The notes under the pieces were generated by a model that worked only from the letters and a program-made list of their open reading frames with translations, searched no databases and was not told where the DNA came from. From a virus (Duplodnaviria > Caudoviricetes), in IMG/VR virus record IMGVR_UViG_3300009370_002257, positions 16,477 to 80,476 of that record: a DNA stretch of 64,000 nt; one strand, written 5' to 3'. Shown in pieces: positions 4,729 to 41,649 of the stretch. The position numbers and the translations under genes were made by a program. How positions within the stretch are numbered: the first letter of the stretch is position 1; each line of letters begins with the position of its first letter.

Positions 4729-5043
4729 TCAAAAGCTTAAAAATTCTAAATTATCGCTTTTTAAAATTATTTTTTCAGCTTGGTAGAAATCCTTTATTTC
4801 CCGCTTATTCTCAGGGGATAGGTATATTGCCATAGATTTGTACCCAGATTCAAGCGAATCCTCCCTTGCCTTTCTGGTGCACCCGCAACCCTGCCCCAAT
4901 GTCGCTGCTATATTTGCCCAATTAGTAAGCTGGGGGTTGTAGGAAAACTTACTTTCTCCGGACATGTTGACAAATAGCTTATAAAACTCAGCCCAGTTAC
5001 TCAATGTAATGACTGAAGTGTTTTCCCTTAATGGTTCACTCAT
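4729..5043 (-). CDS. Hypothetical protein (CGC motif)
   Basis: 104-aa ORF overlapping the upstream gene by 4 nt. Confidence 0.65.
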   Translation of the reverse strand: MSEPLRENTSVITLSNWAEFYKLFVNMSGESKFSYNPQLTNWANIAATLGQGCGCTRKAREDSLESGYKSMAIYLSPENKREIKDFYQAEKIILKSDNLEFLSF

Positions 5044-5411
5044 GCGCTTAACCCTTCAATGTATTCAAATAGCCTGAAAGCAACTAAGGATAATAAATAA
5101 ACCACCGGTAGATTCATAAACCCAACCCCCACACAGCACCCCAAAGAAAGCCAGAAAGAAACACAGGTCGGACAAGAGAGCAGCCTACTCAAGAAACAGT
5201 TCTTTTGGCAGAGCAAGAAGTTAGGATAGTTAGTAGAAAGGAGGGGGTCCTGCGCCCTGAATTCGTTAACATAAAAAAGCTTCCTGCAACCGAGAAGCTC
5301 TAGGTATTCAATAAATGCGTCACTCTTAAACCATATTATTAAGATTGTAACAATTAATGCAACGCAGAACAGTAAAACCTCGAAGCTTGCAAACATATAA
5401 CATATTATCAT
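5040..5411 (-). CDS. Small membrane protein, DUF1360-like
   Basis: Hydrophobic segments flanking LLSCPTCVSFWLS (CPxCxSxW). Confidence 0.6.
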   Translation of the reverse strand: MIICYMFASFEVLLFCVALIVTILIIWFKSDAFIEYLELLGCRKLFYVNEFRAQDPLLSTNYPNFLLCQKNCFLSRLLSCPTCVSFWLSLGCCVGVGFMNLPVVYLLSLVAFRLFEYIEGLSA

Positions 5412-5460
5412 GTATAATTTAAAATTCTAGTAAATTTTCACATGGGATACTGCTTTTCGG

Positions 5461-5494
5461 AAATTAAAACACAAAACCCCCAAGTAGGGGGCTT
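5461..5494 (-). terminator. Intrinsic terminator closing the ncRNA unit
   Basis: Minus strand AAGCCCCC-TACTT-GGGGGTT followed by TTGTGTTTT. Confidence 0.85.
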
Positions 5495-5829
5495 CATGAA
5501 TTAACATGGTCTCTGCTTTTTCGGCCCAGTGTTTTACTTGATGGGACATTCAATGACCACGAATACGATCAGACAAAATCTGAAGCTACCTACCTTTGAA
5601 CAGGTGGAGAAACTGTGCTTTAAAACTCCTTACAGTAGCCAACCACAACACGCCGGGGCATTTGCGATAGCATTTAACTATCAGTTTTTTTTCGAGAGGC
5701 ATTCACTCTCGCACGGACTCCTTTAGCTGTGAGTTTCCGCTCAGTCTTTCAGACTACTCTGACCCATAAGGTCTCACTAAAGGCAAACTCCACTGATTGC
5801 TCTCAGCGAGCTTAAACGGATTACCGTTT
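5475..5829 (-). ncRNA. Putative ~350-nt structured non-coding RNA of unassigned family
   Basis: Bounded by its own promoter and terminator, with no credible ORF. At least 10 complementary helices are visible by eye, including nested multi-way junctions (5720-5726/5777-5783; 5584-5589/5635-5640; 5506-5511/5555-5560). Confidence 0.72.
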
Positions 5830-5834
5830 TCATA

Positions 5835-5863
5835 GTTATAACCACATCTTTCGATATAGTCAA
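5835..5863 (-). promoter_or_regulatory. sigma70-type promoter of the ncRNA
   Basis: TTGACT (5863-5858), 17 nt, TATAAC (5840-5835). Confidence 0.8.
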
Positions 5864-5871
5864 ATTAAAAA

Positions 5872-6360
5872 TTATTTACCAGTGCTCCCGAACCCACCAG
5901 AGCCCCTTTCGGAGTCAGATAAACGGGCAGAAGGTTTCCAATCTACATCGTAGCATCTTTCTATGATAAGCTGAGCGATCCTGTCTCCCGAAGAAACCCT
6001 AAAGTCTAAAGGAGAACCAAATAGGGAACTATAGGCAGACATAGATGAATCAGGACGATGGATTAACCCTTCTGGTAGATTCAAATTAACAAGCACCACT
6101 CTCAAGCAGTCCCTATAACCAGAATCAACTACGCCAGCAAGAACATCTATCCCATTTCTTACCGCCAACCCGCTGCGGGGGGCGATCCTACCATAATAAC
6201 CCTCAGGTATCTCGACAGAGATGCCCACGGAAACGAGCTTCCTTTCCATAGGTTTAATTACGCAAGACTCCGTCGAGAAAAGATCGTAGCCAGCGTCAGA
6301 CTCTTTAGCTCTAAGAGGCTGCTTTGCGGCAGTTTCTAATTTTTTAAATTTAATCTCCAT
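5872..6360 (-). CDS. dut: Trimeric dUTPase
   Basis: Motifs I-V: AGYDL, PRSG, GVVDSGYR, GDRIAQL, RGSGGFGSTG. Confidence 0.95.
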   Translation of the reverse strand: MEIKFKKLETAAKQPLRAKESDAGYDLFSTESCVIKPMERKLVSVGISVEIPEGYYGRIAPRSGLAVRNGIDVLAGVVDSGYRDCLRVVLVNLNLPEGLIHRPDSSMSAYSSLFGSPLDFRVSSGDRIAQLIIERCYDVDWKPSARLSDSERGSGGFGSTGK

Positions 6361-6754
6361 AATGATGAAGGTCTAAACCAAATTCCTTAGCGATGGATAA
6401 CGAGGAGTCGTCTCTATCATAAAATTTTTTAAAAATAATTTTCTCAACCCCATACGCTGCCGCCAGCTTCAAGCAGTCGTTGCATGGGAGCAGATTGCAG
6501 GCAAGTAAATAACATTCACCCGGGCGGGCATACCTAAGAGCGTTAACTTCAGCGTGAATAACCCTTGCCCGCCTCTGGTCACGATTGGACCAATCTATAT
6601 TTACATCTTTAGGCGCACCGTTATAACCTAATCCAGCCACGCTATGGTCGTGGCGAAGCACACACGAGCCCACTTGCTCGTAGGGGTCTTCGCTCCTACG
6701 CGAGGCAATAATGGCAAGCTCTAAGGCGTATTCTTCCCAAGATAATCTTTTCAT
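6350..6754 (-). CDS. dCMP deaminase
   Basis: GYNG, HAEVNAL and PCNDC zinc-deaminase motifs. Confidence 0.9.
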   Translation of the reverse strand: MKRLSWEEYALELAIIASRRSEDPYEQVGSCVLRHDHSVAGLGYNGAPKDVNIDWSNRDQRRARVIHAEVNALRYARPGECYLLACNLLPCNDCLKLAAAYGVEKIIFKKFYDRDDSSLSIAKEFGLDLHHYGD

Positions 6755-6791: not shown

Positions 6792-7232
6792 ATGACAATT
6801 TTAACTGCTTCCGCAAAACTCTATGAGTGGTTCACAGAAAACGATAGCTTCTGCCTTGAATATGACTTTAACAAGCTTTTCCAAGAAGATCAAGACAAAG
6901 ATAGGGAAAGCGCGTGCGTTATAAACGCCTTAGAGCAGTTTAACGAAATGCAATTTACTTCTTCTGCGGAAGTGGGCGGCAGAAAGGTATGGACCCTAAG
7001 GAGGCCCCTGAATTCGCTCCCCCAAACCGTTGAGCTTGGCCCGGACGCATGCCTTCAAATCTCTCACGTGATTAATGGGTTCTCCGAATACATAGGGGAT
7101 GATTCCAGTATGTGTGATCCAGCAAACATCTCAGAGGTTAATGTCTTGACATTAGTGACAATTTGCGCTACTCTAATAAAAGACAAGACGGAAGAAGATG
7201 CAAACGACACAGGACTGCTCGACGGAATATAA
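6792..7232 (+). CDS. Hypothetical protein
   Basis: Start moved to ATG 6792 because the longer ORF overlaps the divergent gene; TTGAAA-16-TAAAAT lies just upstream. Confidence 0.6.
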   Translation: MTILTASAKLYEWFTENDSFCLEYDFNKLFQEDQDKDRESACVINALEQFNEMQFTSSAEVGGRKVWTLRRPLNSLPQTVELGPDACLQISHVINGFSEYIGDDSSMCDPANISEVNVLTLVTICATLIKDKTEEDANDTGLLDGI

Positions 7233-7893: not shown

Positions 7894-8338
7894 AGGCATT
7901 ATGGCGGACCTTAGCGGTCCAGCCAAAATCCCTCAGGTCATCCCAATTTATGCCCACGTAAGCGTGGATTTCGTAAAACTAAACCGAAAATACATAGAGG
8001 CTCAGGAGCTAATAGACTCGACAGACGCCTTTAAAGGAGCGGTTGAAGACCTTCGCTTTAATTATTTAATTTATGTTTTTAAGGATATAAGTGCTAACCC
8101 CAAGAATTTAATAACCATTGAGTACGTCATAAGCGAAAAGGGAAATGAGGAAAACCCCTTTATAGAGACGTACAACGTACCTCCGGAAAAACGAAAATTA
8201 ATATCTAAGTACGCAAGTACCCCACTCAGGGTTTTCGAAACCGAAGGTAAGCACCAAAACATACTTCTCTTTAAAGAGCAATGCCCCATGACTCTGGATA
8301 GCTTTAAGGAGTTGATAAGAACATGGGCAAAGTCGTAA
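7859..8338 (+). CDS. Hypothetical protein
   Basis: ORF in operon; start uncertain (a later ATG is possible). Confidence 0.6.
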   Translation: MSLEESNWKNIKGIMADLSGPAKIPQVIPIYAHVSVDFVKLNRKYIEAQELIDSTDAFKGAVEDLRFNYLIYVFKDISANPKNLITIEYVISEKGNEENPFIETYNVPPEKRKLISKYASTPLRVFETEGKHQNILLFKEQCPMTLDSFKELIRTWAKS

Positions 8339-8925
8339 AAATAACAGAAGACGTAACGCTAGTCAAGAGAGTCAAGAGAAGGAAGTGTGACAAGAGCCTC
8401 AAAGAACTAATAAACAGGCACTCTCCCCTGTGTTACGATATATATAAAAAATATTCTTCAGCAATGCAGTCTTCAGGCATTTGTTTGGCGGACATATACG
8501 GAGAAAAGGACTACATAGTCTACAAGTCTGCAATGAGTTTTAATCCAGACAAGAAAACTAAATTCTCCACGTGGCTCGGAAACCAAGTCAGATATTACTG
8601 CCTGAACCTGATAAACAGCAACAAACACGTGTGCGTAGGGGATCAAAATCTTGATTTTTATGTCGATCAAAAAACCGAAAGGGATAGAGAGGAGGTTAAA
8701 AGTGAAGTAGAGTATATATTTAATTTACTAGACCAACTGCAGGATAAAAGAATCAAAAAAATATTTAAACTTAGATATTTTCAAGGTGCAAAAATAAAAA
8801 TGCCTTGGGTTAAAGTAGCCAAAGAACTCAACGTAAGCACCCAAACAGCCATAAACCTCCACAATAAAGGGGTAGACATAGTATTCAAAAAAGTTAAGAG
8901 CACAGCCCTTTCAGATTTTCTTTAA
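8323..8925 (+). CDS. Phage sigma70-family sigma factor
   Basis: Region 2-like FNPDKKTKFSTWLGNQVRY and region 4 HTH MPWVKVAKELNVSTQTAINLHNKG. Confidence 0.8.
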   Translation: MGKVVKITEDVTLVKRVKRRKCDKSLKELINRHSPLCYDIYKKYSSAMQSSGICLADIYGEKDYIVYKSAMSFNPDKKTKFSTWLGNQVRYYCLNLINSNKHVCVGDQNLDFYVDQKTERDREEVKSEVEYIFNLLDQLQDKRIKKIFKLRYFQGAKIKMPWVKVAKELNVSTQTAINLHNKGVDIVFKKVKSTALSDFL

Positions 8926-8967: not shown

Positions 8968-9234
8968 ATGGCTGAAAAGCAAAATAACGAATGGGACGAG
9001 CGCGAACTCGGTGCGCTCTGGAAAAAACAAAGCGCGAATGGTCGGAAATACCTTTCTGGCAAGCTAAAGGTAGAGGGCAAAGACGTAAACGTTGTTTGCT
9101 TTCCTAACCAAAACAAGAAGGCGGACAACCATCCAGACTTCAGGCTTTACACCTCGAAAGAGTACGAGGCCACCGCGCAAACCGAGCCTGCCCAGTCGCA
9201 AGAAAACGCGACCGACGCAGAAGACATTCTCTAG
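8968..9234 (+). CDS. DUF736-like small protein with acidic tail (possible SSB)
   Basis: GALWKK...YLSGKL...NKKADNHPDFRLY; acidic C-terminus. Confidence 0.6.
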   Translation: MAEKQNNEWDERELGALWKKQSANGRKYLSGKLKVEGKDVNVVCFPNQNKKADNHPDFRLYTSKEYEATAQTEPAQSQENATDAEDIL

Positions 9235-15889: not shown

Positions 15890-16689
15890 TGAATAAGGTT
15901 ATTGCGATGACGGCCTGCAGAAGGCCTGAATATACTCAGAAAGTAGTGGATTCTTTATCCAACTGCACCAACTCTTCCGAATATAAATTCGTACCGTTTT
16001 GCGACGGCCCCCAGCAAGAAGTTATTAACGTCTTGGAGTCTGTAGATTTTTGCGACGTAGAAGTTAACGTGAATGAAAAGCGGGTCGGGCACACCCTCAA
16101 TACTCATAGAGCTTTAACTAGGGCCTTCGAGCTTTCTGATTACGTAATTCTCTTAGAAGATGATACGGTGCTATCTAAAGACTTTTTAGAATTTCACGAA
16201 TTCTGTAAAGAAAAATTTAAAGATGACAGTACAGTATACACGGTCTCGGCGGGGCACTATAACAATGTTGATAAAATCTATAGGGAAGAGGACAGGTCTA
16301 TGTATAAAAGAAACCAGTGGTTCTCCAATCAAGGGTGGGGTACATGGATAGACCGCTGGGAAGAGGAGGGCGGGATAAAGCACACATGGGAAGAGCCAGA
16401 GACGGTTGATTTCAAGCAATATACTACCAATTATAAGTACGGCGGCTGGGACGGGCTAATGAATAAACACACGCGGAAGGGGAGAGACGAAGTACTCTCC
16501 GTCGTTAGCAGGGTTAAAAACATAGGGGCTGAGAACGGTGTCCATTGGGGGTATAATAGATCAGTTTACAATTCATTCTCAGACTTCCACAAAGACAAAA
16601 TCGAGGTGAAAGATTGGTGCGGCCTTTATAATCTAGAGGGGGTCGAGTACAGGGAGGAGACAAGATTGTTTTCGGATTATATAATGTGA
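15889..16689 (+). CDS. GT-A glycosyltransferase
   Basis: FCDG, ILLEDD, WGTW..RW and SRVKNIG motifs. Confidence 0.75.
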   Translation: MNKVIAMTACRRPEYTQKVVDSLSNCTNSSEYKFVPFCDGPQQEVINVLESVDFCDVEVNVNEKRVGHTLNTHRALTRAFELSDYVILLEDDTVLSKDFLEFHEFCKEKFKDDSTVYTVSAGHYNNVDKIYREEDRSMYKRNQWFSNQGWGTWIDRWEEEGGIKHTWEEPETVDFKQYTTNYKYGGWDGLMNKHTRKGRDEVLSVVSRVKNIGAENGVHWGYNRSVYNSFSDFHKDKIEVKDWCGLYNLEGVEYREETRLFSDYIM

Positions 16690-34285: not shown

Positions 34286-35773
34286 ATGAGTAAGATATAT
34301 TCAGAGAGAGTAGAAAGACACGTTCTAGGAGGACTAATCAAACACCCAAAAGTATTCGCAGAGGTAGATGGATTTATTAATGAAAGAGATTTTTTTCACA
34401 ATGTTCACTATACTATTTTCTGTGTCCTGCGAGACAGTGTTTACAAGAATGAAAAGATAGATGAGGTACTCCTTGCAACAAAAATCCAGAACTTGGGGGT
34501 AGCATTTAAGGATGATATTAATATTCATCAATATATTTCGAGCATCACATTCACGCAGATAACTCAGGGGGCAACCGTAGAAGCCTGTAAAGAGTTAGTT
34601 AAGCTGAGGGTGAGAAGGGAGATAGACGAAACCGCAGAAAAGATAGCAGATGAAGTGCGTAATGCTGGGGAGAAAAACGTAGATGAAATAGTAGCTTTAT
34701 GTGATTCAATTTATAACGATAAAATCTCTAGCTACCAGTTTGACGAAGAGCCGGTAGAAATTATGGACGGCTTAGAGGATTTACTCCAAGAGCGCGCGGA
34801 AGCACCAGAAGAAGATACGGGCATAGCAACCCCATACGAAGAGTTCAATAGAATGTATGGAGGATTTAAGGCTGGGCATGTTTACTCTATTGCCTCTAGA
34901 CCGGGGGAAGGTAAAACCACTTGGCTCGTAGACTGTGGGTTTAAGGCTGGCGAAATCAATGATGTTAAAGTTCTCTACCTAGACACTGAAATGATGACTG
35001 AGGAAATCAAATTTAGATTAGCTTCCTCGTTCACAGATATACCTACATGGTATTTGGAAACAGGTAACTGGGCCAAGAATTCAGACCTTATCAACAAAGT
35101 TAATAACTGTGACAAGCTCAAAAAAGGATCTAATTTCTACCATTTTCACGTAAGTGATAAGCCAATCGAGAGGGTGTGCTCAATAATTAAAAGATGGTAC
35201 TACTCAGTGGTTGGTAGGGGTAATAAATGCATGATTATATACGATTACGTAAAGCTCACTGGGGAAACGCTTGGCAAAAATTACATGGAGTATCAAATTA
35301 TTGGAGATAAAATCAACCAACTAAAGAGGGTCGCTGAAGAAGTGAACGCCCCAGTGCTAACAGCCATACAGCTTAACCGGACAGGGGAATCTAGAAACCG
35401 GAGAGCGGCAGATATAGTTGATGATAGCTCCGCGTTTGCCCTGTCAGACAGGCTCCAGTGGATCGCTGCCTTCACTGCGATTTTTAGACGGAAAACCCTT
35501 GAGGAGGTCGCCATTGACGGAGAAGAGTTCGGAACGCACAAATTGGTTCCAACTAAAACCCGCTTCCAAGGTAAGGACGCGGCGGGTCATAGAGACTTTT
35601 TAAGAAGGACCGAGGAAAGCGGCTCGAGCAGGTTCGTACCCAACTTCATAAACTTTAATGTAGGCAACTTCGCCGTTGACGAAAGGGGCTCATTGAGGCA
35701 TATTATTGAAAGGGAGAACGAAACCTACGAGGTTCAAGATTCTAACGAAAATGACAGTCAAGACGTACTGTAA
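34286..35773 (+). CDS. dnaB: DnaB-like replicative helicase
   Basis: N-terminal ERHVLG domain; ASRPGEGKTT, DTEM, YDYVK, QLNR. Confidence 0.92.
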   Translation: MSKIYSERVERHVLGGLIKHPKVFAEVDGFINERDFFHNVHYTIFCVLRDSVYKNEKIDEVLLATKIQNLGVAFKDDINIHQYISSITFTQITQGATVEACKELVKLRVRREIDETAEKIADEVRNAGEKNVDEIVALCDSIYNDKISSYQFDEEPVEIMDGLEDLLQERAEAPEEDTGIATPYEEFNRMYGGFKAGHVYSIASRPGEGKTTWLVDCGFKAGEINDVKVLYLDTEMMTEEIKFRLASSFTDIPTWYLETGNWAKNSDLINKVNNCDKLKKGSNFYHFHVSDKPIERVCSIIKRWYYSVVGRGNKCMIIYDYVKLTGETLGKNYMEYQIIGDKINQLKRVAEEVNAPVLTAIQLNRTGESRNRRAADIVDDSSAFALSDRLQWIAAFTAIFRRKTLEEVAIDGEEFGTHKLVPTKTRFQGKDAAGHRDFLRRTEESGSSRFVPNFINFNVGNFAVDERGSLRHIIERENETYEVQDSNENDSQDVL

Positions 35774-36693
35774 TGCGAGACTCAGAAAATCTGAAAGAAA
35801 TCCTATTGGATTTAGGTTATCAGAACATAACCGATATGGGCAAAGAGCTAAGAGCCAAGCCCATTTATCGGGATTCTGATAGCAGCACAGTATTACGAAT
35901 CAGGAAAGATACAGGTCATTGGGTTGATTTTAGCAAAAACATCAGCGGCACGTTCGAGGAGTTGGTTCGGCTCTCCCTAGGTGTAGACGACATAACCCAA
36001 GCCAAAGAATATATTGCGAGTAAGTGGGGCGCGCCCCGAAAAACGAGGGTCACCCCGAAACCGGAAATAAGAATGCCAAAAGTTTTTCCAAAAGAATCGT
36101 TATCCAAACTAGTACCCGAACACGACTACTGGGTAGACAGAAACGTGGCTTTGGATACCCTGCGGATGTTTAAGGGCGGCATAATTAAGGAGGGCAGGAT
36201 GAAAGACAGGTATGTATTCCCTATATTCAATCACAAAGAAGAACTTATCGGAGCCTCTGGTAGGGATTTAATTAACGACCCGAACAATAAGAAGAGGCCT
36301 AAATGGAAACACGTAGGGAACAAAAGTGAGTGGAAGTATCCATTATTTTTTAACTATAAAATTATAAAAGAAAAAAATGAAGCAATTCTTATAGAGAGCA
36401 TAGGCGATATGCTTGCTCTTTGGGACGCTGGAGTAAAAAATACCATAGTGACATTTGGCTTAGACACGAGCGTAGCAATAATTAATTTCCTATTAAGATA
36501 TGATATAGAAAAAATACGCATCTCACTCAACAACGATGCAGACAACAACTTCGCAGGGAATGAAGCTGCGGAGAAATTGCAAAGAAAACTAAGAAAGTAT
36601 TTTGACGAACATCAGGTAAGCATTAAGCTGCCCACTCAAAACGACTTTGGAGAAATGACAAAGCAAGAAATCAACCACTGGTACCATGCCTAA
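35773..36693 (+). CDS. DnaG-like primase (TOPRIM)
   Basis: VFPI, GASGR, LIESIGDML, NNDAD, DFGE; TAATG-coupled to dnaB. Confidence 0.85.
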   Translation: MRDSENLKEILLDLGYQNITDMGKELRAKPIYRDSDSSTVLRIRKDTGHWVDFSKNISGTFEELVRLSLGVDDITQAKEYIASKWGAPRKTRVTPKPEIRMPKVFPKESLSKLVPEHDYWVDRNVALDTLRMFKGGIIKEGRMKDRYVFPIFNHKEELIGASGRDLINDPNNKKRPKWKHVGNKSEWKYPLFFNYKIIKEKNEAILIESIGDMLALWDAGVKNTIVTFGLDTSVAIINFLLRYDIEKIRISLNNDADNNFAGNEAAEKLQRKLRKYFDEHQVSIKLPTQNDFGEMTKQEINHWYHA

Positions 36694-37672
36694 GAAGAAA
36701 ACAGTATACTTATCTGCCTCGCGGATCAAAACCTTAGAGAGTTGTAGCTGGCTTTACTGGGGAAAATATCACCTTCACCTTCCCGACACGGGAAATGACG
36801 GGGCTGCTCGCGGCACAGTGTGCCATAGAATATTTGAGCTATTATTGTCCGAAAAGAACTTTAAATATTTCGAATTGATTATGTCAGAGAAATCTACCGC
36901 AGCCTGCAAGGCTGTTTGTAGATTAGTCAGGATACTCCTCAAGAAAGAGGGTTTCTACAACGAAGAAAACTACGACCTGTGCTTGGATATGATCCTCACC
37001 GGTCTAAAGTGTGACTTCTTTGGCTCCGAAGACCTAATATACGGAGAGCCGTACATAGAACGCCCAGAGGAGGCGTTCAAAATTGAAAATAAAAAACCTG
37101 TCTGGAATGCTAGGGGCTTCATAGACAAACCCATACAGTACAAAGACACGAGAACCCTCAAGATTGTAGATTATAAGAGTAGTAAGATGAAATTTAGAGG
37201 GGAAGAGCTTACGGGTAACGTACAAGCCATGATGTACACATTAGCCGCGCACAAAATATGGCCAGACAAGTTCGACAAAGTGATTGTTCAATTCCTGTTC
37301 ATCAAATTCCCCAGATCACCCATTCAAGAGCTAGAGTTTTCCAAAGAGGAACTCAAAGGCTTCGAGCTTTACTTAGAGTATGTAAATAAAATAGTCTCTA
37401 AGTTCGATGAGAGAAGCGCACAGACCAACTTCGCGATAGATGGTGGTTGGAAAACTAAATGGATGTGCGGCCCTACCAAAAGTGGCTGGGAATGCCCCAT
37501 TAAAAAGCCTTTTGATTATTATAATCTTGTAGACGAAAAAGGCAATTTCATAAAGAGCTCCTTCGAAGACGACTTAGTGCCAGAAAAAGGGCAGAAAGTG
37601 GAGAAAAAGTCTTACGAAGGTTGTCCAAAATTTCAAAATATTTCAGAGGAAGAAGACCCATTTAATCTTTGA
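36686..37672 (+). CDS. PD-(D/E)XK exonuclease, Cas4/AddB-like
   Basis: LSASRI..C, GTVCH, GFIDK, VDYKS; C-terminal Cys cluster. Confidence 0.8.
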   Translation: MPKKKTVYLSASRIKTLESCSWLYWGKYHLHLPDTGNDGAARGTVCHRIFELLLSEKNFKYFELIMSEKSTAACKAVCRLVRILLKKEGFYNEENYDLCLDMILTGLKCDFFGSEDLIYGEPYIERPEEAFKIENKKPVWNARGFIDKPIQYKDTRTLKIVDYKSSKMKFRGEELTGNVQAMMYTLAAHKIWPDKFDKVIVQFLFIKFPRSPIQELEFSKEELKGFELYLEYVNKIVSKFDERSAQTNFAIDGGWKTKWMCGPTKSGWECPIKKPFDYYNLVDEKGNFIKSSFEDDLVPEKGQKVEKKSYEGCPKFQNISEEEDPFNL

Positions 37673-37697
37673 CAAGATGGTAAATTTCCTTTAGTCT
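37669..37697 (+). promoter_or_regulatory. Promoter TTGACA-N5-GTAA-N8-TAGTCT, leaderless
   Basis: 17-nt spacer; ATG 7 nt downstream; overlaps the upstream TGA. Confidence 0.7.
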
Positions 37698-37704
37698 TAT
37701 AGAA

Positions 37705-38472
37705 ATGGTAATTCCAATTTTCAAAAGTCACTATTCGATAGGAAGGAGCGTTCTCACCCTAGAGAAGCCCGTAGACGTTATTAAAGATGGCCCAGACTCT
37801 ATTATTGATCTGTGCAAAAAGAATGGTATAGATAACCTTTACTTGGTAGAAGATTCCATGGGAGGGTTCCTTCAGGGCTACATCAACTCTGCGGAAGCGG
37901 GGTTGAATTTTCGCTTTGGGTTAAGGCTTACCGTCTGCGACGACATGCTTCAGAAAGACGAAGAGTCTAAGCTTCGATGCAGCAAATACATTATATTCGC
38001 CAACAACAAGGAGGGCTACCATAGGCTAATTAAAATAAATACTACTGCTTCTAAGGATGGTTTTTACTATAACCCTAGGGCGGATTTTAAAACTTTAAAA
38101 AAACATTGGGATGATAATGATCTTTCCTTATGTATCCCATTTTACGACTCGTTCCTGCATAGGAATGCGATCCATGGGACGTTATGTGTTCCCAATTTTG
38201 ACTTTACAAACCCGACCTTCTTCATTGAGGATAACGATTTATACATTGATCAAGTAATCCGCAAACACATAGAGAAGCACTGCGAGGATGGGTGCGAATC
38301 TCAGGAGGTGAAGAGCATTTACTATAAAACTAGAAAAGATTTTAAGTCCTATCTGACTTTTAGGTGCATTAACAACAGATCAACCCTAGACAAGCCAGAG
38401 CTAGAAGGAATGAACAGCGCTGAGTTTTGCCTTCAAAGCTGGAAGGAATCCAATGGACGAGCACTTGCTTAG
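37705..38472 (+). CDS. Stand-alone PHP domain of DNA polymerase III alpha
   Basis: KSHYSIGRS, LVED, GLRL, IFANNKEGYHRLIK match the DnaE N-terminal PHP domain. Confidence 0.8.
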   Translation: MVIPIFKSHYSIGRSVLTLEKPVDVIKDGPDSIIDLCKKNGIDNLYLVEDSMGGFLQGYINSAEAGLNFRFGLRLTVCDDMLQKDEESKLRCSKYIIFANNKEGYHRLIKINTTASKDGFYYNPRADFKTLKKHWDDNDLSLCIPFYDSFLHRNAIHGTLCVPNFDFTNPTFFIEDNDLYIDQVIRKHIEKHCEDGCESQEVKSIYYKTRKDFKSYLTFRCINNRSTLDKPELEGMNSAEFCLQSWKESNGRALA

Positions 38473-39091
38473 ATTTGACAACGATAAGTTGTTTGTGTTT
38501 CTCGACTTCGAGACAGAGAACTTATGCCTTAATTTCGTGCACAACATGCCATGGCAGCTTGCCATGATTAAATCTAAAGGCGGCAAGAAGATAGCCGAAA
38601 AAAATTACCACATTAAATGGGATAGGGAAATTAATGTAAGCGCGGACGCAGCAAGAATCACGGGGTTCAATAAAAAGAAGTACGAGAAATTAGCGGAGCC
38701 ATACAACGAATTGTTCCCAACAGTAGACGACTGGCTTACGTCAGCGGATTACATTGTTGGACATAATATTCTTGGCTTCGATATTCATCTACTCAAAGAG
38801 TACTATAGAAAAATGGGCGTCTCTGATGAGCACTTGCTAGAAAAGTTCCTAGATACTAATGCCTTAGCGAAGGGCATTAAGTTCGGCCTCCCGTACACAA
38901 AGGGGGAGAGCCTCATAGAGTACCAATACAGGGCACACAACAAAAGAAAGAGGGGGGTGAGGACAAATCTTGACGCCCTAGCAAAAGACTACGACATTAA
39001 ATACGAAAAAAGCAAAAGACACGACGCGCTTTACGACCTAGAACTCAACCTGATGGTTTGGAACAAACTAAAACACAACATAGAAATTTAA
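38453..39091 (+). CDS. DEDDh 3'-5' exonuclease (DnaQ-like)
   Basis: LDFETE, GHNILGFD, HDALYD. Confidence 0.88.
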   Translation: MDEHLLRFDNDKLFVFLDFETENLCLNFVHNMPWQLAMIKSKGGKKIAEKNYHIKWDREINVSADAARITGFNKKKYEKLAEPYNELFPTVDDWLTSADYIVGHNILGFDIHLLKEYYRKMGVSDEHLLEKFLDTNALAKGIKFGLPYTKGESLIEYQYRAHNKRKRGVRTNLDALAKDYDIKYEKSKRHDALYDLELNLMVWNKLKHNIEI

Positions 39092-41649
39092 TGGCGAGTT
39101 TCATCAATAAATTCGAGGACTATAACCTAGGCATACACGGCGTTAGGCTTCCTAATTTTCATATCGAAAATAAGTATAAGCGCCAGATCGGGGTCAGCGA
39201 GGATTGCTCTAATATAGAATTCCTCAAAGCTATGGCCAGCAAGGGCTTTAAGAAGCTCGGGGTTAGAAAGGGTACGAAAGCATACAAAGAGTATCAGGCA
39301 AGAGCTAGGTACGAGCTTGAAACCTTAGAAGAATTAGGTTTCATTGATTATATCTTGCTGGTTTGGGATGTAGTAAACTTTTGCAAGGAGAGCGACATTC
39401 CGATTGGTCGCGGTCGTGGTAGCGCGGCAGGAAGTCTTATCTTGTTCCTTATCGGAGCCACTGGTATCGACCCAATTAGGTATGGTTTATATTTCGAGAG
39501 ATTTATCTCCAAGATTCGGGCAAAAAAACAAGTTGTAGATGGAATCACCTATCTTGATGGCTCCCTGATGTGTGACGTAGATATCGACGTATGCTACTAC
39601 AAACGCCAAGAAGTTCTTAAATATCTTGAAGAGAAATTTGAAGGAAAAACATCTAAAATCCTGACCCTCAACACTCTTAGCGGCAAGCTCCTAATGAAGG
39701 AGTGCGGTAAGATCGTGTCTGCGCGGCCCGAGGGGGAGATGAACCAAGTTACGGCTCTCATACCCAAAACCTACGGCATAGTACAGGATATCGGCGAGGC
39801 CTACGATGAAGTAGAAAAATTCAAAGAGTGGTGTGACGAGAATAAAGAGTCCTATGACGTAGCCCTCAAGCTCAGGGGGCTCATTAAAAACAAGGGGGTA
39901 CATGCCTCGGCAATATCTTTATCCTTTGATAAGATGGAAGACTCTTGCCCGACAGAGCTTTCCTCAGACAAGAGTTCGGTCTCTAGTTACGACATGAATT
40001 GGGTGTCCATGTTTAATGTTAAGCTAGATATTTTAGGCTTACGTAGCGCCTCGGTTGTCCACGATGTTTGTAAGCAGGTCGGGATAGAAATGACCGAGAT
40101 TGACCTAGACGATAATTTTATTTACCAAAACCTGCAAGACCTGAGAACGCCTCACGGCTTATTCCAGATTGAGGCGGACACAAACTATAAAGTATGCAGA
40201 AAAGTTATGCCGAAATCTCTCAGCGAGCTAAGCGCGGTACTTGCCCTAGGCAGGCCGGGAGCTATGTCGTTCGTAGATCAATACGCAAGTTACTCAAATA
40301 CCCAGACTTACGAGGCAATCCATCCATTTTTCGATACAATTCTTAAAGAGACCGGTGGCGTGGCCCTATATCAAGAGCAGTTGATGAAAATGGCGCACGA
40401 GATAGGCTTTACGCTTGACGAGGCGGAAATTCTCCGTCGTATCGTAGGCAAAAAGAAGGTGGCAGAGGTAAGAAAATGGAAGAAGAAAATCAAAGACAAA
40501 GTAGCAGAGAACAATCTGGAAAAAGAAGTGGGAGATATCCTCTGGAGCGTCCTCGAAGATAGCGCGAATTATTCTTTCAACAAGTCCCACTCTATCGCGT
40601 ATGCTGCCCTATCTGCTTCCACGATATATCTCAAATTTAAGCACCCGCAGCAGTTCTTCTTGTCGTTGCTAAAAATGACTAGGCATGAGCCAGATCCTAC
40701 TACAGAAATCTCCAAGATCGAAAAGGAGTTGCAGTATTTTGGCATCAAATTGCTACCCCCTCACATCACAAAGTCGGAGATGGACTTCAGCATTGAGGGT
40801 CAAAACATTCGGTTTGGATTACTGTCAATCAAAGGTATTTCGGAAAAGAAGATAGAAAAAATTAACCAATTTAGGGATGAGTATTCCTCTAAATTCGAGA
40901 TATTCCAAGCGGCGACTGAAGCTAAAATAGACATAGGAACACTCTCCGCCCTTATCCAAGCGGGTGCGCTCGAGGATGGCTTCAAGCAGTCGAGAAGCAA
41001 GGTCGTGTTAGAGGCTCAATTATGGAATCTACTAAAAGTGAGGGAGAGAAAATACTCCATCCAGCTTTCAAGTAAATTTGATAATGATCTTATAAAAATA
41101 ATTAAATATTTAATGGAGTACCAAGATGAGAAGGGCAAAGAGATCATTAAAGAAAGCAGGTATGAGACGATTAAGAAGCACTATAAGCCATATCTTGATA
41201 TTTATATGTTAAACAGTAAGTCAGAGAGATTTGCTAATTGGTATTATGAGAAAATTTTATTAGGGTATACCTACAATGTCCCACTCAGAGACATTTTCCT
41301 AGAGAAGCAACCCGAATTATGCTCTGTTAGGGACGCGTTGGAGGCGGAAATCGGGGAAAGCCTTATATTCGCTGCGTGGGTAGATGATTGTTGGTCTGGC
41401 ACCTCCAAAGCTAAGGGTACAAAATATCAAAAGCTCATAGTCTCAGACGAAACAGGCATCATGAACACAATGATTTTCTCCAAGAAGATGGAGGAATGCC
41501 AATTAATGAATGACGGTCTTGCACAAAAGAAAAACATTGTTATAGTAAGGGGGAGGAAGTTCGAAGACGTGGTTTTCGCAGATGTTATCGGTGTCCAAGA
41601 TAATAAAGTTTACACAAAACTCTCAGAACTCAAGAAAGTTAAGGCTTGA
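39091..41649 (+). CDS. dnaE: DNA polymerase III alpha catalytic subunit lacking the PHP domain
   Basis: GRGRGSAAGS, FERF, DVDID, KLDILG, YQEQ, FNKSHS, HhH and OB regions; ATG 39091 by TAATG overlap. Confidence 0.95.
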   Translation: MASFINKFEDYNLGIHGVRLPNFHIENKYKRQIGVSEDCSNIEFLKAMASKGFKKLGVRKGTKAYKEYQARARYELETLEELGFIDYILLVWDVVNFCKESDIPIGRGRGSAAGSLILFLIGATGIDPIRYGLYFERFISKIRAKKQVVDGITYLDGSLMCDVDIDVCYYKRQEVLKYLEEKFEGKTSKILTLNTLSGKLLMKECGKIVSARPEGEMNQVTALIPKTYGIVQDIGEAYDEVEKFKEWCDENKESYDVALKLRGLIKNKGVHASAISLSFDKMEDSCPTELSSDKSSVSSYDMNWVSMFNVKLDILGLRSASVVHDVCKQVGIEMTEIDLDDNFIYQNLQDLRTPHGLFQIEADTNYKVCRKVMPKSLSELSAVLALGRPGAMSFVDQYASYSNTQTYEAIHPFFDTILKETGGVALYQEQLMKMAHEIGFTLDEAEILRRIVGKKKVAEVRKWKKKIKDKVAENNLEKEVGDILWSVLEDSANYSFNKSHSIAYAALSASTIYLKFKHPQQFFLSLLKMTRHEPDPTTEISKIEKELQYFGIKLLPPHITKSEMDFSIEGQNIRFGLLSIKGISEKKIEKINQFRDEYSSKFEIFQAATEAKIDIGTLSALIQAGALEDGFKQSRSKVVLEAQLWNLLKVRERKYSIQLSSKFDNDLIKIIKYLMEYQDEKGKEIIKESRYETIKKHYKPYLDIYMLNSKSERFANWYYEKILLGYTYNVPLRDIFLEKQPELCSVRDALEAEIGESLIFAAWVDDCWSGTSKAKGTKYQKLIVSDETGIMNTMIFSKKMEECQLMNDGLAQKKNIVIVRGRKFEDVVFADVIGVQDNKVYTKLSELKKVKA

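Follow-up and report, generated by a model that had tools for sequence, protein, structure and literature searches.

The stretch of 64,000 nt analysed here (the window; positions 16,477 to 80,476 of IMG/VR record IMGVR_UViG_3300009370_002257) derives from an uncultured phage of the Caudoviricetes and contains, with little room for doubt, a genuine, conserved and structured RNA gene. On the minus strand the gene occupies a 460-nt gap that is flanked by the dUTPase gene (5872-6360) and a DUF1360-like open reading frame (ORF; 5040-5411) and contains no credible ORF. An initial annotation, made from the letters of this DNA, had placed an undescribed, self-contained structured phage non-coding RNA at this site, a call that is borne out by homologues, covariation, conservation of the promoter and negative Rfam and ARAGORN searches. 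Its coordinates were all correct on the minus strand and the unit does stand alone, but the RNA is ~370 nt rather than ~350 nt long and the conserved module extends ~20 nt beyond the terminator, to 5441. The explanation we prefer, at a probability of roughly 0.55, is a stand-alone phage non-coding RNA gene of ~370 nt whose product acts in trans as a folded RNA. This reading is favoured by the presence of a dedicated promoter and terminator, hairpins at both ends of the RNA, the portability of the module and the invariance of several loops. The elements of the module, in the order of transcription, are as follows.

5863-5441, minus strand: whole module; sigma70-type promoter, RNA of ~370 nt, intrinsic terminator and repeat copy R2
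5858..5863, minus strand: -35 hexamer TTGACT, seen in the sequence, with TTGAC at the equivalent position in homologues
5835..5840, minus strand: -10 hexamer TATAAC, 17 nt after the -35 hexamer; predicted transcription start near 5829
5814..5829, minus strand: P1, 5′-terminal hairpin AAACGG/CCGUUU, with a 7-nt loop, U-N-N-R-A-A-U in most homologues
5788..5810, minus strand: P2, two-part hairpin CUC GCUG ... CAGU G GAG, with conserved loop AGAGnAAn
5720..5783, minus strand: P3 domain; helix 5777-5783/5720-5726 closes a three-way junction with a hairpin (5761-5773) and a longer arm
5693..5711, minus strand: P4, hairpin CGAGAG/CUCUCG
5684..5692, minus strand: A-rich linker, the last four bases of which (AAAC, 5687-5684) pair with GUUU (5613-5610) to form pseudoknot PK1
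5665..5683, minus strand: P5, hairpin with loop nUAR...
5643..5656, minus strand: P6, invariant CCC closing on GG around RGCGUG
5584..5640, minus strand: core three-way junction; P7 (5634-5640/5584-5590), invariant GUAA, P8 (5626-5629/5606-5609) and P9 (5592-5605)
5625-5610, minus strand: P8 loop of 16 nt, UUUUnAAGCACAGUUU, almost invariant, with its last four bases in PK1
5569..5583, minus strand: P10, hairpin of variable sequence
5505..5560, minus strand: 3′ pseudoknot domain; P12 (5555-5560/5506-5511) closes hairpin P11 (5538-5553)
5545-5542 with 5528-5525, minus strand: PK2, P11 loop CCCA paired with UGGG; an H-type pseudoknot with an A-rich third loop
5505..5524, minus strand: R1, first repeat copy, CCGAAAAAGCAGAGACCAUG, following PK2; its 3′ half is the 3′ strand of P12
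5461..5498, minus strand: intrinsic terminator; 12-bp G+C-rich stem (5498-5470) and U-rich tail (5469-5461)
5441..5460, minus strand: R2, second repeat copy, CCGAAAAGCAGUAUCCCAUG, after the terminator, at the 3′ edge of the conserved module

Full-length copies of the element, at least ~100 in number and one in each locus, are present in viral and metagenome contigs. Searching the IMG/VR loci around related dUTPases with nhmmer gave 8 copies of the intergenic element, a conserved 20-mer retrieved 17 true copies from IMG/VR, a gapped pattern added ~20 further IMG/VR contigs, and a looser pattern identified at least ~56 copies in metagenome contigs. The 63 sequences that are < 95% identical were used for most of the comparisons below, and 78 distinct sequences for the covariance alignment of the core. 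One exact-pattern scan of 185,579 bacterial and archaeal species (one genome each), which divergent copies could escape, returned 75 stretches, none of them a real copy; all are chance matches as judged by nhmmer and score at most 22 bits with the core covariance model. Among 50,697 records of isolate phages there was no blastn match to the RNA element or to the 4 kb around it, and no tblastn match to two flanking proteins of unassigned function. The DNA polymerase III alpha subunit (Pol III alpha) has at most ~31% identity to any isolate phage protein, a divergence that marks a deeply branching, uncultured lineage. These phages carry their own sigma factor, large glycan-synthesis clusters and nucleotide-metabolism genes. 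Their contigs look mostly marine, and several have name prefixes that we take to be those of ocean metagenome assemblies. When the 80 phage loci whose dUTPases are most similar were compared, only 12 were found to carry the RNA.

The sequence in the window folds at -116.6 kcal/mol (z = -3.36), a value that none of 100 shuffled sequences equalled. Approximately 12 conserved helices make up three domains, a 5′ domain (P1-P4), a core (P5-P9 with PK1) and a 3′ domain (the H-type pseudoknot, P12 and the terminator), and the single-stranded stretches UUUUnAAGCACA, RGCGUG, GUAA and GUCCCA are nearly invariant. Compensatory base changes occur in more than 20 pairs. P2, P5, P7 and P8 covary strongly, and P1, P4, P10 and P11 form a hairpin in 76-97% of the homologues from 27-41 different stem sequences. 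The initial annotation had recommended collecting homologues from phage metagenomes and looking for covariation; in the copies so assembled, compensatory changes exceed those in both of the phylogeny-aware controls, shuffled and slid. Almost all of the helices it had drawn are conserved, most with compensatory changes: 5814-5829 is P1, CGCTGA/TCAGTG is P2, 5720-5726/5777-5783 is P3, 5693-5711 is P4, 5666-5682 is P5, 5584-5589/5635-5640 is P7, 5569-5583 is P10 and 5506-5511/5555-5560 is P12. A proposed CCCGG/CTGGG pseudoknot was not retained, as discussed with the 3′ domain. A scan of column pairs for further tertiary pairing returned the known helices only, the remainder being low-complexity A/U matches or clade effects. 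Inspection of P2, P3 and P11 by eye for K-turn, hammerhead, twister and group I core motifs gave no consistent match, and Rfam was likewise negative for these.

Could the same spacer encode a small peptide, or have folded by chance? ORFs of 27-80 aa can be drawn in some frame, but their length and frame vary, none of the 63 homologues has a stop-free sense frame and the gaps in the alignment have no period of three, in agreement with the initial view that no credible ORF is present. A chance fold in a long spacer is contradicted by the compensatory changes in more than 20 pairs, and the probability that either explanation holds is negligible.

The core (5693-5582) aligns cleanly and comprises the A-rich linker, P5, P6 and the three-way junction of P7, P8 and P9. 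When the 78 distinct sequences were placed on the covariance model, 93.1% of the cells pair, as compared with 76.2% in shuffled and 35-46% in slid alignments; there are 458 compensatory cells where 142 are expected, and 21 of the 28 pairs have changed on both sides. The covariation score is 0.568 versus 0.232 shuffled and 0.09-0.15 slid, and the model separates true copies (60-118 bits) from decoys selected by pattern (at most 22 bits). By helix, P7 is 98.5% paired with all seven pairs covarying, P8 is 100% paired, P5 is 93.8% paired with changes on both sides in five of its six pairs, P6 is 93.6% paired and mostly invariant, and P9 is 70% paired. The linker and the P8 loop switch together between lineages (AAAC:GUUU, AGAC:GUCU, GGAC:GUCC and GAAC:GUUC), which identifies their pairing as a pseudoknot. 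PK1 is 98.4% paired, with AU in 51 and GC in 22 sequences at one pair, and AU in 48 and GC in 30 at another. The geometry at PK1 would fit a U-A-U triple helix, but the U-run is unchanged where the A-U pairs become G-C, and this candidate was rejected. Extra hairpins are inserted in P6 in some of the homologous loci (L027, ~1720-1745; L081, ~1590-1610; L041; L198), and the terminator loop of L081 has a palindromic insertion of roughly 40 nt. These sites tolerate insertions and probably face outward in the fold.

Covariation in the 5′ domain scores 0.283, versus 0.180 shuffled and 0.06-0.16 slid. P1 and P4 were misaligned by MAFFT and were therefore folded individually. Folded in this way, P1 is a single hairpin in 60 of 62 homologues, built from 27 different 5′ stem strands (mean z -3.15), and P4 is a hairpin in 54 of 61 homologues, from 41 different stems. 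The P1 loop would fit a T-loop, which we offer as a lead only. In P2, 92.9% of the cells are paired and three pairs switch, between UA and CG (34/16), CG and UA (45/14), and UA, CG and GC (41/12/6). In the window and several homologues the closing helix of P3 has only Watson-Crick pairs; in others A-rich mismatches break it up, and 67% is paired overall. The inner arm is 82% paired and covaries, and the longer arm carries a GCGGA motif, GGCAGA in most homologues.

In the 3′ domain the covariation score is 0.312 versus 0.189 shuffled and 0.07-0.10 slid. P10 is 95% paired and all five of its pairs covary. The two strands of P12 form a more stable duplex with each other (-8.15 kcal/mol) than with strands from different RNAs (-5.55 kcal/mol). 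PK2 is mostly an invariant CCC:GGG pairing, replaced by GGCUA:UAGCC in L092, L291 and L230 and by GCUU:AAGC in L100 and L187. The GGG is assigned to the P11 loop because the compensating swaps in these two sub-lineages fall there and not in the CCCC of P6, as the CCCGG/CTGGG pairing put forward initially would have it.

As expected of a gene for a stand-alone non-coding RNA, the element has its own promoter, as judged by sequence, and a 3′ intrinsic terminator. The promoter hexamers, TTGACT and TATAAC separated by 17 nt (5863-5835), are as first annotated and are common, rather than universal, among the homologues. TTGAC falls in a 19-nt interval set at a constant distance upstream of P1 in 45 of the 63 (71%), where 0.019 per sequence would be expected by chance, and TAnnnT follows it by 16-18 nt in 34 of the 63, the shared motif being TTGACW, 16-18 nt and TAnnnT. 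An automatic promoter scan missed TTGACT/TATAAC, the -10 of which ends in C and not T; the homologues support the promoter. In most of these phages it is located within the final codons of the upstream ORF, that for the 146-aa protein described below, and its retention even there indicates selection on the promoter itself. With -35 and -10 elements of the canonical type, it suggests a host that uses standard sigma70 promoters. The G+C-rich hairpin and U-run that had been annotated as a terminator are likewise real. A terminator is found throughout the homologues; its 12-bp stem is 90% paired and nine of the 12 pairs, all in the lower stem, covary, and the C5/G5 core and GGG are invariant.

The RNA matches no described family that we searched. 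Rfam 15, with 4,227 models that include GOLLD, ROOL, HEARO, OLE, raiA, IMES, manA, wcaG, pRNA, 6S, T-box and riboswitches, gave no hit in the window at gathering thresholds, and 17 homologue loci gave only transfer RNAs (tRNAs) located elsewhere. At E ≤ 10, region 5300-6000 gave only an irrelevant plus-strand match to ARRPOF (E = 8.2). An Rfam search had been named initially as the check on novelty, and neither threshold produced a relevant family. The initial remarks that the RNA lacks the ends of a tRNA or transfer-messenger RNA (tmRNA), and the features of RNase P RNA and group II introns, also agree with these searches: ARAGORN found no gene in the window, Rfam tmRNA models gave no hit, and RNase P RNA, group I and II introns and small self-cleaving ribozymes gave no Rfam hit even at E ≤ 10. 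No paper describing this RNA was found in the literature, and a text search for a conserved 11-mer returned only chance matches to primers.

The gene order around the RNA differs between groups of phages. In most, genes for a DUF1360-like protein, dCMP deaminase and c7 run leftward, and those for a protein of 146 aa, the RNA, a deoxynucleoside monophosphate (dNMP) kinase, a sigma-factor-like protein and more run rightward. In the group to which the window belongs, dCMP deaminase, dUTPase, the RNA and the DUF1360-like protein have one direction, with the 146-aa protein and the kinase in the other, and in a third group the 146-aa protein is missing. The RNA is preceded by the gene for the 146-aa protein in most phages and by dUTPase in the window's group, and has no such predecessor in the third. 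The gene that follows the RNA may encode the dNMP kinase, the DUF1360-like protein or another protein, or be convergent (at least 8 loci), and in many loci a separate TTGAC promoter lies between R2 and the next gene. Homology between phages starts at the -35 hexamer and ends right after R2 (~40 nt past the terminator hairpin), whatever gene follows, and the module behaves, on these comparisons, as an independent unit that appears to have been moved within the early region. Varied neighbours, convergent next genes and fixed edges argue against a leader or riboswitch, as does the lack of a constant position in the 5′ untranslated region of a coherent gene set. In one sub-lineage (L295, L093, L098, L292, L087, L221, L309 and L321), one or two convergent genes (c11 and a partner) have been inserted immediately past R2 and separate the RNA from the dNMP kinase gene; the arrangement resembles a moron or mobile insertion where two transcription units meet. 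The neighbours of interest in the window are as follows.

6792-7229, plus strand: protein of 146 aa; the listed ORF starts at 6711, homologues start at the methionine at 6792
8323-8925, plus strand: sigma-factor-like protein, a weak assignment (PHROG 36/351; Pfam Sigma70_r2 just below the cut-off)
8968-9234, plus strand: conserved ORF of 88 aa after the sigma-factor-like protein; both are downstream of the RNA in most related phages

No gene accompanies the RNA more consistently than that for the 146-aa protein (46 of 63 loci). The protein belongs to no Pfam or PHROG family, and its confidently predicted structure (predicted local distance difference test score 90.4) has an N-terminal winged helix and two long C-terminal helices. 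Foldseek found no match in the PDB at E ≤ 0.001; a wide structural search matched the winged helix to many nucleic-acid-binding domains with Z of 7-9, a generic similarity that names no family.

The terminator is bracketed by the direct repeat R1/R2. Both copies, 20-25 nt in length and 52-69 nt apart, occur in every lineage and differ between lineages in step. Their similarity is 25.0 within a phage and 14.8 between phages, and in 98% of cases the two copies from one phage score in the highest quartile. R2 is typically one A short, with one or two extra bases in mid-repeat. The copies are often partly palindromic (TTC-n-GAA, CTTAAG, TTCC-nnnn-GGAA), a form that would be compatible with recognition by a dimeric DNA-binding protein. 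A genome-wide promoter or operator was rejected, as the motif shows no enrichment in the window (7 matches, 6.3 expected) and no third copy occurs within 3.5 kb in any locus. No phage-specific signal was found for pairing of R2 with the 5′ strand of P12 (U1), the U-rich tail or other parts of the RNA. A mini-CRISPR (clustered regularly interspaced short palindromic repeats) array or anti-CRISPR repeat decoy was considered and rejected; the 52-69 nt period would allow it, but variation falls in the 'repeats' and conservation in the 'spacer', opposite to what is seen in CRISPR arrays. Short ORFs in R1/R2 were also rejected, as AUG-stop pairs are present in the window and in L084 and in none of the other lineages. 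We know of no precedent for a co-varying repeat around a terminator.

Under the trans-acting reading, host RNA polymerase would transcribe the RNA early from the near-consensus sigma70-type promoter and stop at the terminator, to yield a discrete, stable RNA that begins and ends with a hairpin. The fold of this RNA would be what acts, most likely by binding proteins as a scaffold or decoy during early takeover or regulation, with catalysis conceivable. R1 and R2 would probably serve a second, sequence-specific partner that differs between phages, for which the winged-helix protein is a putative candidate. Several points weigh against this reading. The start, end, abundance and existence of the RNA as a discrete transcript are all predictions from the DNA. 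TTGAC is missing in 18 of the 63 homologues, and such copies may be co-transcribed with the upstream gene. The RNA is always co-oriented with the upstream gene and usually (~50 of 63 loci) with the downstream gene, and conservation that continues past the terminator to R2 is not explained by a simple terminated, trans-acting RNA and leaves room for a role in cis or at the level of DNA. The constant co-orientation and this conservation keep weight on transcription control in cis, in which the fold of the nascent RNA, alone, as in HK022 put, or with the winged-helix protein or phage sigma factor, would decide between termination and read-through. R2 would then matter only in read-through transcripts, and the layout recalls lambda PR'-tR', where a constitutive promoter ahead of an operon gives a short transcript that is terminated. 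Such control would also suit the position of the module, in most phages just ahead of the operon for dNMP kinase and sigma factor, and the invariance of the C5/G5 terminator core, which is more than simple termination needs. It is difficult to reconcile with the differing downstream genes, with the loci in which the next gene is convergent and R2 is still present, and with the separate promoters beyond R2. No covarying antiterminator pairing was found: in the window no pairing competes with the terminator, P12 and the terminator using different bases, and R2 has no phage-specific pairing to U1 or the U-rich tail; in some homologues U1 can also pair with the lower terminator stem. At 370 nt and with two pseudoknots, the RNA is, moreover, far larger than known antiterminator RNAs. 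We consider control in cis unlikely, but a serious alternative.

Two further explanations take R1/R2 as their starting point. The module might be a replication origin or other DNA-level site, at which the structured RNA, strongly transcribed, primes or activates replication, as do ColE1 RNA II and T4 and T7 origin transcripts, and iteron-like R1 and R2, flanking the G/C hairpin beside AT-rich DNA, bind a DNA-binding initiator that could be the winged-helix protein. Repeats that differ in step between phages with no RNA pairing partner, the position of the module within ~1.5 kb of the point of transcription divergence and of the cumulative GC skew minimum, and a nucleic-acid-binding fold in the most constant neighbour are consistent with an origin, and the invariant runs of C and G resemble the persistent-hybrid motifs seen in primer RNAs. 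This explanation is nevertheless improbable. There are only two repeats, the skew tracks gene orientation across the whole window and so is not independent evidence, the genes for DnaB, primase and Pol III alpha are 30 kb away, the winged-helix match is generic, and selection for RNA structure is strong along the whole length, which a primer alone would not need. An immunity-type antisense RNA like P1/P7 C4 or P4 CI, with the repeats as targets of the loops of the processed RNA, is more improbable still. In C4 and CI systems, flanking direct repeats complementary to loops of the RNA are the hallmark, and here too an RNA gene in an early regulatory region has direct repeats on either side of one of its parts. 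They bracket only the terminator and not the RNA, however; the RNA exceeds C4 or CI fivefold in size and contains no phage-specific complementarity to R1/R2, the best non-self signal being ~-0.8 kcal/mol.

Comparison with known systems also sets this RNA apart. GOLLD- and ROOL-type RNAs are often found in phages or prophages, and the initial annotation had tentatively linked the element to such large ornate phage RNAs. Structures of GOLLD, ROOL and other large ornate orphan RNAs have been determined by cryo-electron microscopy (bioRxiv 10.1101/2024.12.08.627333). The resemblance holds as one of category, in that the RNA is large, multi-helix, pseudoknotted and non-coding, has nearly invariant loops and was found by comparative genomics, but the GOLLD, ROOL and HEARO models do not match it. 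In contrast to GOLLD and ROOL, it has ~370 nt rather than 580-800 nt, comes from a different and apparently marine phage lineage, and has a conserved sigma70-type promoter and a repeat that brackets the terminator. The phi29 pRNA (RF00044), transcribed early from its own promoter, is likewise a phage-encoded, stand-alone structural RNA with a three-way junction. Its model does not match, however; the RNA here is twice the size, is encoded in a nucleotide-metabolism and regulatory region of large phages with a GpJ-like tail protein, not phi29-like podoviruses, and has no intermolecular loop-loop complementarity that we could identify. As in HK022 put and lambda PR'-tR', an RNA close to its promoter and a terminator after it precede phage operons, so that a role in the control of termination in cis is conceivable. 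HK022 put has only ~70 nt in two stem-loops and the PR'-tR' transcript needs no conserved fold, whereas 370 nt are under structural selection here, and the downstream genes vary, are sometimes convergent and often have their own promoter. Like P1/P7 C4 and P4 CI, the RNA gene lies with direct repeats in an early control region, but R1/R2 do not complement its loops as theirs do, and size and architecture are unrelated. A bulk prediction from IMG/VR listed 8,495 unnamed candidate structured RNAs (Fremin et al. 2023; PMC10690425), which have the same source, phage contigs in IMG/VR, and the same kind of evidence, covariation. As those candidates have only 29-151 nt, the set could hold at most unnamed fragments of this RNA.

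The RNA is well defined: its ends are clear, its core is compact (~110 nt), its testable secondary structure includes two pseudoknots, and it has ~100 natural variants and a plausible protein neighbour. To our knowledge, structured RNAs of > 300 nt with many conserved helices and pseudoknots are rare, and nearly all of those that are understood are ribozymes or ribonucleoprotein cores; a new one is therefore a good candidate for new biochemistry. It is conceivable, at somewhat less than even odds, that a new class of phage RNA is represented here, large, expressed autonomously and with its own biochemical role, used early in infection by an abundant, apparently marine, uncultured lineage, and that the repeat is a new recognition element. 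If so, the RNA could serve as the scaffold of a ribonucleoprotein, act as a decoy for a host machine (RNA polymerase, the ribosome or a defence system, for example) or be a ribozyme, and the repeat that brackets the terminator would be common to the RNA and to its DNA or read-through transcript. The RNA may also bear on host takeover by a phage lineage that has no cultured relative and has its own sigma factor, glycan and nucleotide genes. The co-varying repeat is a small puzzle, for which no explanation was found among the signals, pairings and copies examined.

In several homologous loci, tRNA genes are located within 1-4 kb of the RNA: L035 (4557-4734), L006 (4539-4609), L019 (5223-5296), L027 (4688-4761), L041 (5215-5288), L085 (230-380 and 4818-4891) and L055 (1600-1683). 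ARAGORN identified no tRNA gene in the window itself. Besides the genes already named, the window encodes ribonucleotide reductase and a GpJ-like tail protein, and its replication module (34286-41649, plus strand) encodes a DnaB-like helicase, a Toprim primase, a PD-(D/E)XK nuclease and a DnaE-type Pol III alpha. The Pfam match to the dUTPase (5872-6360, minus strand) is split in two by an extra segment of ~30 aa around residues 95-130.

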